A DNA stretch of 64,000 nt from Heptranchias perlo (Eukaryota): assembly GCF_035084215.1 (NCBI RefSeq), contig NC_090360.1, positions 5,580,001 to 5,644,000 on the forward strand, given 5' to 3'. The notes beneath the pieces are model-generated. The model was not told the DNA's origin, did no database searches, and saw nothing but the letters and a program-made list of their open reading frames with translations. Below, in pieces: positions 1 through 14,081 of the stretch. Within the stretch, counting starts at the first letter, position 1; every line of letters begins with the position of its first letter. The position numbers were made by a program, and so were the translations under genes.

Positions 1-94
1 CTACATTCGAAGTCGTGGCGCTTCCCACCACCAGCAGGATGTTGGGTCCCTCATTTCCTGTGGTGTATCTCTGTATCCATAAGTTCTTCAGGGT
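1..94 (-). CDS. SCaMC-like coding exon 9, truncated by window edge (TLKNLWIQRYTTGNEGPNILLVVGSATTSNV)
   Basis: ttctttcag acceptor at 95-96; TLKN.W..RY pattern. Confidence 0.88.
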
Positions 95-12000: not shown

Positions 12001-14081
12001 ACTGCTAAAATTTACTCATCAGCTCAGTGCAGTTCACCTAGGATTAAGGAGGGGGAAGAGAGAGAGAGAGAGACACACACACACACAAAGAGATGAGAAA
12101 GACACAGAGAGAAGAGATAAAAGAATGGAGAGCGAGGAGAGAGATTCATTCCAGTCAGGGATGGCTTTGCCCCCAGGTCCCAAAAGTGAGGACGGAAAGT
12201 GTGCTAACAAAATACACCACCCTGTTCTCACAGTTTTAACCTTTTGATATAATAATGTACAATAATATCTTTATATTTTTCTAATAAAACATAATTTCTC
12301 CCTGGCAATTAAATATTCTTTCAATTAAAAAAAATCACCTTAACTTTTTTTTTGTAGTTACCTATTACAACTGTTATGGTTTATTCTGGTAGACAACTGC
12401 AGCAGAAATAAAAATTGTAGCCTAGTGATTCCTACTTGTGTTATTAACAGGGGAGTGCGTGTTAACTCTTGTAGCACAGTCCCCTGCCTGCCATTTTAAG
12501 AGGTGTTAATCAATTTAAAATAAAATATTGTTCACTCACCAATGGAAGGTTCACGACTAATGTAGAGAAGCTGGAGCTAAAACTAACAGGGTATTGGGTT
12601 GTATTAATAGAACCATTTAGTATAAATCAAAGGACATTATTTTAACACTTTATAGGTCGCTGGTCAGACTGCATCTAGATACTGTGCCCAGTTTTGATCC
12701 CCCACATTGTGGATGATCTAGTGGCCTTGAAAAAAAATCCAGAGGAGAGCTACAAGAATGATTCCTATCTTAAAGAACCTCAGCTACTCAGATAGGCTCA
12801 AAGATCTTGATCTATTTACTTTAGAGCAGCGTAGACTTAGAGGTGATCGGATAGAGGTCTATAAAATAATTAAAGGGCTGGATACTGTCCCTATTGATAG
12901 ATTATTCCAGTTTAATATATTGGGGAGGACCAGGAGACACCGGTTTAAACTATATATGAGTAAGAATAGACTGGATGTTAGGCAGTTCTTCTTCTCCCCC
13001 CAAGAGCGGTTAACCTTTGGAATACGTTACCAGCTGTGAAGGGTGCTGACTCTCTTGTTGAGTTCAAGAGGGAGTTAGACTGGTTCCTGACTGGGACAGA
13101 GATCGCATCAAATGCAAGGTAAGTGCCTTTAAAGATAAAACTTGGCCCATGTGATCTCCTGGACTGCTTTCGATTGCCTGTGGGGGTCAGAAGACAATTT
13201 TCCAGCGTATTCTCCCTAATTGGCCCTGGTTTTTTCTCTCCCGCAGGTGATTACATGGCTGGGGGGGGAGGGGGGGGGAGGGAGGAGGAGGTGGTGTTTA
13301 GTCAGGATGTTCCAGCCATCGTGTTGTGGGAAAATTTTTCCAACAACGTTCACCTGAGGAAGGAGGAAGCCTCTGAAAGCTTGTGAATTTAAAATAAAAT
13401 TGCTGGACTATAACTTGGTGTTGTAAAATTGTTTACAATTGTCAACCCCAGTCCATCACCGGCATCTCCACATCTGAATCATGTACACAAATCACAGCAG
13501 TCCCAGTCTCATTAGTATATTTATTTCCACTGCATCAATTTCTAAAATGTACAAGTCACACTTTCATACACAATTGTGTCCGACAAATAGAGAGAGCAAT
13601 TTATACACCCGTGCTCCTTGGAAGTTGCCAATATTAGTGCTAAATGCTGAACACATTTGTATGACATTCTCTTGTCTGCTGTTTTAGCACAGGTATTAAC
13701 TTCTTGGTTTTAAATGGGGCAACGCTTTGCTATAATAGTGGACACAGCAATATCATACAAACACGCATATCACCAACAGTAGTTTCACAGCTACAGAGTT
13801 TGTAACCAACAAAATAACTAAAACGTGGGACTGAATTATTTACAGGTATGATCTGTTATTTGTCCTACAGTATACTGACAATTTGTAATAAGCTGGCATC
13901 CTCACATTCAACAACACTATACCTTTGGAATTTCTTCCAGCCCTTTGATTAATTCCGCAGCATCCACACGACCATTCCGGTGCACATCTAACTTCTTGTA
14001 AAGGTTTTTCCAAATATTGTGCTTAACTATTAGTTCATCGGGAGTGCCTCGTTGAAGGAACTCTTTCATAAACGGGAACAT
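1..14081 (-). CDS. Divergent calcium-binding mitochondrial carrier (SCaMC / SLC25A23-24-25 family ATP-Mg/Pi antiporter-like), spliced gene, 3' end outside window
   Basis: Nine phase-compatible GT-AG exons: 14081-13923, 11955-11853, 11343-11256, 9940-9829, 8360-8205, 6321-6169, 3465-3358, 1462-1295, 94-1. N-terminal EF-hand-like region followed by carrier signatures TAPFDRLRV, FPVEMLKTR, WRGN, FYRGYVPNILGIIPYAGIDLAVYE. Exact orthology unresolved. Confidence 0.93.
281..660 (-). mobile_element. L2 LINE 3' fragment
   Basis: FKILILVFKSLHGL, same family as 57740-59040. Confidence 0.85.
690..900 (-). mobile_element. CR1-group LINE RT fragment
   Basis: MQQDLDNIQ...PLTFNGITIAESPTINILGV. Confidence 0.7.
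1295..1462 (-). CDS. SCaMC-like coding exon 8 (MLKTRMTLRKTG...GIIPYAGIDLAVYE)
   Basis: 168 nt, highly typical SCaMC motif; ctaacag acceptor, GAG/gttagt donor. Confidence 0.95.
1825..2480 (+). mobile_element. CR1 LINE 3' fragment
   Basis: LEGVQCRFTRMI...YEDRL..LGLHSLEYRRLRGDLIEV. Confidence 0.9.
3358..3465 (-). CDS. SCaMC-like coding exon 7 (LKNLLAGDSEQLGMKERFLAGSMAGAFSQTATFPVE)
   Basis: 108 nt, ttcacag acceptor, GAG/gtaaga donor; ERFLAGSMAG motif; found manually. Confidence 0.93.
4354..4390 (-). ncRNA. Minimal type I hammerhead ribozyme motif (identical inverted copy)
   Basis: Exact reverse complement of 4392-4428. Confidence 0.8.
4392..4428 (+). ncRNA. Minimal type I hammerhead ribozyme motif
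   Basis: TCAC-CTGACGA-A-GGAGG-AAG-CCTCC-GAAA-GCTT-GTGA: stem I, CUGANGA core, stem II, GAAA, palindromic minimal stem III. Confidence 0.8.
5366..5730 (-). mobile_element. CR1 LINE 3' fragment
   Basis: Similar to 21885-22410 and 61267-61657. Confidence 0.8.
6169..6321 (-). CDS. SCaMC-like coding exon 6 (VYSTRQNK...EGGISSMWRGNLTNIIKIGPELAFKFMAYEE)
   Basis: 153 nt, carrier repeat 1 C-terminal motif, canonical splice sites. Confidence 0.93.
7790..8150 (+). mobile_element. CR1 LINE 3' fragment
   Basis: RRMRGDLIETYKIL...SRTRGHSL. Confidence 0.88.
8205..8360 (-). CDS. SCaMC-like coding exon 5 (IFSINDD...LIAGGTAGGVSRTVTAPFDRLRVLMQ)
   Basis: First carrier signature PxDxxR; cag acceptor, CAG/gtagga donor. 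Confidence 0.93.
8496..9234. mobile_element. Non-autonomous DNA transposon (PIF/Harbinger-like)
   Basis: TIRs ggcccagaaattgc / gcaatttctggcc, 3-bp ATT on both flanks, no ORF. Confidence 0.65.
9829..9940 (-). CDS. SCaMC-like coding exon 4 (LDENDYMTTGWNEWHKIYITEVEDNMISMIDIWRFNS)
   Basis: 112 nt, WNEW motif of EF4, cag acceptor, gtaagt donor. Confidence 0.9.
11256..11343 (-). CDS. SCaMC-like coding exon 3 (KIGALKIIGLMKKLNIHLNIYQAKKILE)
   Basis: 88 nt, tttgtag acceptor, gtaagt donor, phase 1 to 2 fits neighbours. Confidence 0.85.
11853..11955 (-). CDS. SCaMC-like coding exon 2 (DGLKAGDFEEFRKYLAMHKMKIMLGFGSIEKNRN)
   Basis: DFEEF..YL..H..K pattern of SCaMC EF2/EF3; donor A/gtgagt; weak acceptor ttaaag. 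Confidence 0.8.
12056..12087. repeat. (GA)n(CA)n microsatellite
   Basis: Direct reading. Confidence 0.9.
12590..13330 (+). mobile_element. CR1 LINE 3' fragment
   Basis: LSYSDRLKDLDLFTLEQRRLRGD. Confidence 0.85.
13349..13473 (+). mobile_element. Penelope-like terminal repeat with hammerhead motif (13349-13387)
   Basis: TTCAC-CTGAGGA-AGGAGGAAGCCTCT-GAAA-GCTT-GTGAA, then same tail as 4430-4507. Confidence 0.8.
13923..14081 (-). CDS. SCaMC-like coding exon 1 (MFPFMKEFLQRGTPDELIVKHNIWKNLYKKLDVHRNGRVDAAELIKGLEEIPK)
   Basis: ATG at 14081, 11 nt after a tgtttcag acceptor (exon starts 14092); EF-hand loop DVHRNGRVDAAE; donor AAG/gtatag. Confidence 0.85.

Follow-up and report, generated by a model that had tools for sequence, protein, structure and literature searches.

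A 64,000-nucleotide window of the Heptranchias perlo genome (NCBI RefSeq assembly GCF_035084215.1, contig NC_090360.1, positions 5,580,001 to 5,644,000, forward strand; coordinates below are those of the window) carries at its left end, on the minus strand, a gene for an ATP-Mg/Pi carrier (APC) of the SCaMC type, which is an extra SCaMC paralogue in addition to the EF-intact genes, as judged from other sharks. From the residues retained and lost in its orthologues, calcium sensing looks to have disappeared across the shark and ray lineage, and the residues of the locked state have been retained while those of the clasp that releases it were lost. The reading that we tentatively favor, at somewhat under an even chance, is that of a calcium-ignoring nucleotide/phosphate exchanger whose pin locks it at rest and which some other signal opens. 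The evidence for the locking-pin model of APC regulation comes from engineered variants of a single human protein; the shark and ray gene provides a naturally occurring example of the combination that those variants predict to be dead, a pin retained without sensor or clasp, yet it is conserved. It could expose a new route of carrier opening, or the way in which the pin is neutralized without calcium; if its calcium key has indeed been replaced, the SLC25 family would contain a mode of regulation not seen before, established ahead of the shark/ray split.

The human framework was taken from PMC5369052, PMC6283063, PMC4562336, PMC3391283 and PMC12410006. In human APC1, the locking pin, an amphipathic helix, is captured by a pocket in EF3/4 that opens with calcium; when calcium is absent, the helix binds the carrier and locks it (PMC5369052). 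A truncation that keeps the pin and removes the sensor (delta1-155) shows no uptake, which is restored by removal of the helix, and mutants of the clasp shift the carrier toward the inactive state (PMC5369052). The amphipathic helix itself corresponds to human residues I159-W166 (PMC6283063).

In order to score these elements, human numbering was transferred to 14 orthologues via the alignment of 4N5X to coelacanth SLC25A24, and a full set of calcium ligands was defined as loop positions 1, 3, 5 and 12. The four EF-loop sequences quoted in an earlier annotation of this stretch, made from its letters alone (hereafter the original prediction), were confirmed from the window, and its claim that the ligands are altered or lost holds across the family: a full ligand set was found in 0 of 14 orthologues for each of EF1, EF2, EF3 and EF4. 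The corresponding counts per loop are 15-16 of 16 for SLC25A24 (A24), 7-8 of 8 for SLC25A23 (A23) and 8-9 of 9 for Y, an EF-intact shark and ray lineage introduced below, and SLC25A25 (A25) carries full ligands in 11 of 11 for every loop except EF3 (0 of 11). Position 1 of EF1 is Asn in the 13 orthologues other than that of the window, position 5 of EF4 is Tyr in 14/14, and the EF2 loop has been lost through a deletion of 16 residues across the exon 1/2 junction, so that the N-domain spans 117-118 residues in the family versus 133 in canonical SCaMCs. No Pfam EF-hand family scored above cut-off in any of six family members, compared with passes in all five full-length controls (E around 1e-23); a PROSITE-style EF pattern was found in 0/14 orthologues, but it is non-discriminating, since SLC25A25 itself scores just 0-1. 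The Glu-Arg-Asp clasp is also broken, Glu88 being absent in 14/14 (Asp in one) and Asp149 in 14/14, with Arg148 kept in 8/14, and Pro155, which precedes the pin, is lost in 14/14. Five family members carry an N-domain net charge of +1 to +7, versus -6 to -14 in five controls, and this domain is faster-evolving in the family than in the paralogues (orthologue identity 0.50-0.76 versus 0.70-0.90). Two local peculiarities were also seen in this domain: both Scyliorhinus orthologues (P0005, P0009) have 8-9 additional residues, most of them basic, where EF2 is deleted, with no ligands restored, and the Gly at EF4 position 9 of the window protein (9910-9912, minus strand) is private, the other 13 orthologues having Asp.

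The locking pin, on the other hand, has kept its hydrophobic pattern, with Trp166 in 14/14 orthologues and a basic residue at position 167 in 12/14 (Arg for Lys167). The residues of linker and carrier that accompany it in the locked state are equally conserved (Asp176 14/14, Glu183 13/14, Arg291 14/14), so that the lock-state set W166, K167, D176, E183 and R291 is retained while the clasp is lost. Mean within-family identity is 96% for the linker, in which 13 of 17 columns are invariant in 14 orthologues, 80% for the pin, 79-84% for the carrier repeats and 53-66% for the EF segments. The segment after EF4 that the original prediction had described as amphipathic aligns to human residues 171-186 and is the linker loop, the true helix lying at the end of exon 4; that this segment differs from canonical SCaMCs is correct, but it is the best-conserved part of the protein and shows no decay.

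The carrier domain matches Pfam Mito_carr in three stretches (E 2e-66), and the model of orthologue P0007 matches structures of the ADP/ATP carrier (target template modeling score about 0.8, E 5e-12) and of UCP1. The eight residues proposed to bind ATP-Mg (R209, K260, E264, G353, I354, Y357, D361, K453) are all present in the window protein, and all are found in 14/14 orthologues except I354 (13/14). Across 22 aligned sequences, the Tyr, Glu and Lys of the cytoplasmic gate on helices H2, H4 and H6 vary little or not at all, and the first two matrix signature motifs are retained. To this extent the transport domain is intact, as had been proposed; the description fails for a replaced Tyr-x-Gly stretch in exon 8 (1429-1415), for 22 of 138 near-invariant carrier sites that are fixed for another residue (Y 7, EF-less lineage Z 9, SLC25A41 13), and for the third matrix motif, where His replaces Arg in 17/17 family members and in 0/228 other rows, Arg being present in 212 of 245 proteins. 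The neighboring Arg is also replaced, by His or Gln, in 7/14 orthologues. The position of the substituted Arg presumably pairs with a Glu on helix 3, as in the ADP/ATP carrier structure. On the rough scale of PMC6283063, by our own arithmetic on what is there a hypothesis, the substitution would lower the matrix network from 2.5 to about 2.0, compared with 3.0 for the cytoplasmic one, and it bears on the proposal that the relative strength of the two gate networks selects exchange or net transport. Carrier identity between orthologues is 0.77-0.91, versus 0.81-0.96 for working paralogues in matched species pairs. Taken with the long stem branch of the family described below, the pattern of conservation suggests a burst of change on the stem, after which pin, linker and carrier came under constraint again, with no ongoing decay. 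A concentration of the changes in repeat 3 is significant by a loose count (23/51 versus 12/83, p 2e-4) but not by a strict one (10/48 versus 12/90, p 0.33), and no such claim is made. The stretch at the entry of H1 (8277-8288, minus strand) is private to the window protein, the other orthologues sharing Trp-Gly-His.

The proposed mechanism combines these elements by analogy with the human mutants. Loss of the calcium ligands and of the clasp would abolish the calcium response, and a pin kept without its clasp would leave the carrier locked by default at any calcium level. With its substrate residues kept, the carrier probably still exchanges adenine nucleotides and phosphate, and its conservation suggests that it is opened by some non-calcium cue, because the substrate site of a permanently shut carrier would not be expected to persist throughout both groups. 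More speculatively, the N-domain, turned from acidic to basic, might bind to a membrane or to some partner that withdraws the pin, and the matrix-gate His might weaken that gate or make it pH-dependent. The full combination, in which a pin-locked default is released by a non-calcium signal acting on the basic EF-derived domain, the His gate is pH-sensitive or weak enough for uncoupled nucleotide/phosphate flux, and the whole was fixed before the shark/ray split, is rather unlikely as it stands. The original prediction had the gene evolving toward calcium-independent transport, which agrees with the loss of the ligands but overlooks the pin: human APC1 with the pin and without the sensor is inactive (PMC5369052), and calcium-blind therefore need not mean always on.

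Several points weigh against a pin-locked exchanger. The lock role of W166, K167, D176, E183 and R291 rests on thermostability, the uptake of D176A, E183A and R291A not being measurable, and human APC1 delta1-171 keeps D176 and E183 yet is active (both PMC5369052). SLC25A41 also keeps a Glu at the 176 position, and part of the conservation of these residues may therefore be structural. Two AlphaFold models, which cover family members only, without a canonical control, fuse the pin to the preceding helix, the Pro turn being gone, and this fusion could equally hold the pin away from the cavity; the predicted local distance difference test score (pLDDT) of the pin is below 50 in the better model. 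The first model (15 sequences) averages a pLDDT of 43.6, and a fold search with it returned no meaningful match; in the second, the N-domain matched the APC1 regulatory domain at an E value of 0.11 only. In the sensor, EF1 retains Gly6 together with acidic residues at 9 and 12, and in 11/14 orthologues EF4 has three of its ligand positions (1, 3 and 12) intact, so that weak cation binding may occur. The 22 fixed changes in the carrier may mean that its substrate or mode has changed.

The main competing explanation, somewhat unlikely in our judgment, is a constitutively active, calcium-independent APC in which the N-domain holds the pin off the cavity, or the pin is embedded in a rigid helix, so that the end state of SLC25A41 would have been reached by another route. 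Such a carrier would need no new regulator, and the intact substrate site and cytoplasmic gate, the loss of the Pro155 turn in 14/14 and the single continuous helix through the pin in both AlphaFold models agree with it. Against it, the Trp and basic residue of the pin are conserved, and the clasp that holds the pin in the open state is gone, a loss that in human APC1 shifts the carrier to the inactive state (PMC5369052). The same species already have an EF-less, pin-less carrier lineage (Z), and the helix comes from models with the limits given above, the pin falling below 50 in the deeper one.

It is quite unlikely that the substrate or transport mode has changed, or that the protein has a non-transporting role with the N-domain as a scaffold. 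The His of the matrix gate, present in all 17 family members and in none of the other 228 rows, the change of its neighbor in half of the orthologues and the excess of fixed carrier changes over Y, Z and SLC25A41 all point in this direction; they are set against the retention of all eight nucleotide, phosphate and Mg residues, including the APC-specific Glu264 and Asp361 (PMC6283063), and against carrier identities close to those of working paralogues. A retuned sensor, in which EF1 and/or EF4 weakly bind Ca2+, Mg2+ or another cation and thereby modulate transport, appears improbable. Sub-threshold Pfam EF-hand matches to EF1 in 4/6 proteins and the three ligands kept by EF4 in 11/14 would fit it, human APC1 is itself of low affinity (half-maximal effective concentration about 180 uM), and SLC25A25 works with a non-canonical EF3; but EF1 has lost its EF2 partner, position 12 is Lys or Arg both in EF3, which forms one half of the pocket for the pin (14/14), and in the EF4 of three of four rays, and the clasp is broken.

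A decaying duplicate or pseudogene, to which the long stem branch, the fast-evolving N-domain and a low-quality flag on one database model of a family member might point, is highly improbable and already largely refuted by the open frame, the spliced transcripts, the full-length models in many species and carrier repeats that are 79-84% identical. The gene is real and spliced. Its nine in-window exons lie between 14081 and the left window edge, and the spliced model is open over 380 codons with GT-AG boundaries at 8/8 introns, which bears out the original prediction both on the nine exons with canonical splice sites and on there being no obvious pseudogene. Its translation is identical to residues 33-412 of a database protein of 492 aa (P0001), which was recovered by the exon 5 search and from which exons 9-10 were read. 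The acceptor at 14092 implies at least one further exon upstream of exon 1, and the upstream exon of the P0001 model (Table 1) is probably a 5' leader. Transcripts were checked in four contig sets (X1-X4) from one sample of one study, the RNA status of which is a guess, there being no RNA record. The exon 8/9 and 6/7 junctions are spliced in 4/4 sets and the 7/8 and 5/6 junctions in 3/4, and a 951-base contig spans exons 1, 2, 4, 5, 6 and 7, its 88-base gap being exon 3; this spliced contig shows that the shortened exon 1/2 junction with the EF2 deletion is real. Contig depth over the gene is 142-249 in X1 versus 9-38 in X2-X4, depth being a poor measure and the runs bearing no tissue label. 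Contigs at 1295-1494, 1435-1784 and 9829-10009 cross from exon into intron, as unspliced transcripts or other acceptors would, and among the catshark gene models there is an isoform extending into intron 3.

Table 1. Features of the carrier gene and its neighbor in the window
Feature	Position	Strand	Remarks
Upstream in-frame exon of P0001 model	16071..16155	-	with the exon 1 start adds 32 residues; orthologues without conservation
Exon 1, EF1-bearing	13923..14092	-	acceptor 14092, conserved ATG 14081, coding 14081-13923; contig X2 record 8
EF1 loop	13953..13988	-	His at position 3; position 3 His or Tyr in 14/14
Exon 2 (103 nt)	11853..11955	-	EF2 remnant, clasp Glu88 position (here Lys), first half of EF3 loop
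Exon 3 (88 nt)	11256..11343	-	second half of EF3 loop
Exon 4	9829..9940	-	EF4 loop 9936-9901; clasp Arg/Asp pair and Pro turn lost
Amphipathic locking-pin helix, human 157-170	9829..9870	-	end of exon 4; PMC5369052, PMC6283063
Exon 5	8205..8360	-	linker loop 8360-8310, helix H1 with Arg209, first signature motif 8234-8217
Exon 6	6169..6321	-	helix H2 with Lys260 and Glu264, cytoplasmic-gate motif
Exon 7	3358..3465	-	Arg291, helix H3, start of second signature motif
Exon 8	1295..1462	-	end of second motif, replaced Tyr-x-Gly 1429-1415, H4 with Gly353, Ile354, Tyr357, Asp361
Exon 9 start, cut by window edge	1..94	-	third motif with His for Arg, and exon 10, lie beyond the window (from P0001)
BLOC1S2 (coding span), separate from carrier gene	25918..30493	-	Pfam BLOC1_2 on 2/3 exon pieces tested

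The distribution of the family was analyzed by several searches. The exon 5 search yielded 19 family proteins among 38 candidates, P0001 itself and 18 others, all of shark or ray origin, of which 17 are named and the last, a Logan protein, clusters with skate; together with cluster look-ups, it places the family in 19 named shark and ray species, which we take to represent lamniform, carcharhiniform, carpet, bullhead and saw sharks, skates, sawfish and stingrays. A profile built from 15 family members was then used to score 7989 candidates. Family members scored 642-966 bits and single-copy canonical SCaMCs up to about 540; five mammal or bird records (579-844 aa) reached 578-746 bits, at least one of which (P0022) consists of two models fused together. 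The best 120 of this search contained no orthologue from chimaeras or bony vertebrates, and an exhaustive search of 50% clusters returned a single family cluster at 797 bits, the next match scoring 415. The paralogue is thus common to sharks and rays and absent from the other groups searched, its absence from chimaeras not being proven.

Elasmobranchs hold at least five SCaMC lineages, all auto-named '-like'. Besides the family, sharks carry SLC25A24, SLC25A25, the third EF-intact lineage Y and the EF-less lineage Z, and the window gene is thus a duplicate and not the 1:1 orthologue of a canonical SCaMC, as had been anticipated. Y (P0296-P0305) comprises EF-intact shark and ray carriers of 481 aa named 'SLC25A24-like' that form a separate clade and may represent the elasmobranch SLC25A23 (support 73/55). 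Z (P0144, P0288-P0294) comprises proteins of about 300-400 aa with neither EF-hands nor any segment recognizable as the pin, some models possibly being 5'-incomplete; it is sister to Y (support 100/99) and seems to parallel mammalian SLC25A41 by an independent origin. In Mustelus, the family, A24, Y and Z lie on single-member records of 31.6, 140.6, 85.7 and 63.0 Mb, and these four different lengths imply that the carrier gene is no tandem copy of A24, Y or Z. The family and A24 are on different records in Mustelus, Cetorhinus, Stegostoma and Carcharodon. The gene is thus unlinked where this could be checked, in keeping with the relocation proposed earlier, and its retained introns imply duplication at the DNA level.

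Phylogenetically, the family is a clade with support 100/100, whose stem of 1.4-1.5 changes per site compares with 0.1-0.4 within the crown. The extra copy is common to sharks and rays; the long stem and conserved crown do not agree with a recent duplicate that is still eroding. The family falls inside the vertebrate APC clade (support 97/94 and 97/97), and a position just outside vertebrates plus tunicate was not rejected by the approximately unbiased (AU) test (p 0.148). With 16 of 43 alignment rows dropped for these tests, grouping of the family with shark A24 (p 0.46), all A24 (0.46), all A25 (0.24), A23 (0.16) or Y+Z (0.16) was not rejected, nor was its placement as the sister lineage of every other vertebrate gene (0.44). 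Groupings with chondrichthyan A25 alone (0.017) and with Y alone or Z alone (0.002 each) were rejected. The AU tests thus leave the parent among A24, A25, A23 or an older origin, and diagnostic sites shared with the family (A24 1/4, A25 4/27, A23 0/12, Y 1/46) are uninformative in this respect. A grouping of the family with a divergent lamprey protein was flagged as long-branch attraction and set aside, no shared derived motif having been seen. The lamprey proteins concerned (P0143, P0279-P0281) have EF-hands that score normally and a carrier without the Arg209 equivalent and the first-motif Asp, in which 41 of the 138 near-invariant sites are fixed for changes.

By descent the gene belongs to the APCs, and comparison of its sequence with known systems indicates that it fails as a calcium-gated APC and as either the SLC25A41 or the SCaMC-1L type. 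It shares with SLC25A23/24/25 (APC1-3) the three-part layout of EF-derived domain, amphipathic helix with linker, and carrier, together with the eight substrate residues and the cytoplasmic gate, at a carrier identity of 48-54%; it differs from them in having no full-ligand loop, in the 16-residue EF2 deletion, in the loss of clasp and Pro turn, in its basic N-domain, in the His of the third motif, which leaves the matrix gate without the basic Arg, and in existing beside EF-intact genes of the same species. SLC25A41 (SCaMC-3L) resembles it as an APC-type carrier predicted to be calcium-unresponsive. That natural calcium-independent form has no regulatory domain and, according to PMC12410006, no amphipathic helix; by sequence, the pin is missing from lineage Z as well. 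The shark and ray protein keeps both the regulatory domain and the helix and does not group with SLC25A41. SCaMC-1L, a germ-cell form the gene of which we take to be Slc25a54, is likewise a faster-evolving extra SCaMC encoded by an intron-containing gene. It is, however, found in therians as a tandem duplicate next to SCaMC-1, with which it shares 75-78% identity, and has four calcium-binding motifs (PMC3391283), while the shark and ray gene is unlinked, about 45% identical and without a canonical loop. The closest functional likeness is to the human APC1 mutants (delta1-155, E88A, R148A, D149A, I159A), in which sensor or clasp is removed and the pin kept, but these are inactive or impaired laboratory constructs and the shark and ray gene is natural and conserved. 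No paper on the shark and ray paralogue was found in literature listings, several of them swamped by general shark papers and most subscription journals being outside reach, and the supplements of PMC13188829 (8 files) and PMC5568229 (part of the files) held no match to it. Divergent SCaMC duplicates are known; the combination of a lost key, a kept pin and a His gate is undescribed in the literature within reach. A link of the carrier to urea synthesis was considered and found no support.

The neighbor of the carrier gene in the window is BLOC1S2, the adjacency claimed by the original prediction being borne out by the Pfam matches listed in Table 1; the same prediction places the human SCaMC genes elsewhere, on chromosomes 1, 9 and 19. 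Beyond it, on the minus strand at 38200-56150, lies a gene of the hnRNP A/B-D type with CBFNT and two RRM matches and a Tyr/Gly-rich tail; given its place beside BLOC1S2, it may represent a member of that family no longer present in mammals. Broken fragments resembling long interspersed nuclear elements occur at 18463-19242, 27542-28611 and 57876-59122; the second gave endonuclease and esterase-type Pfam matches below cut-off, and the other two were judged by eye. Very high contig depth was drawn by intronic repeats.

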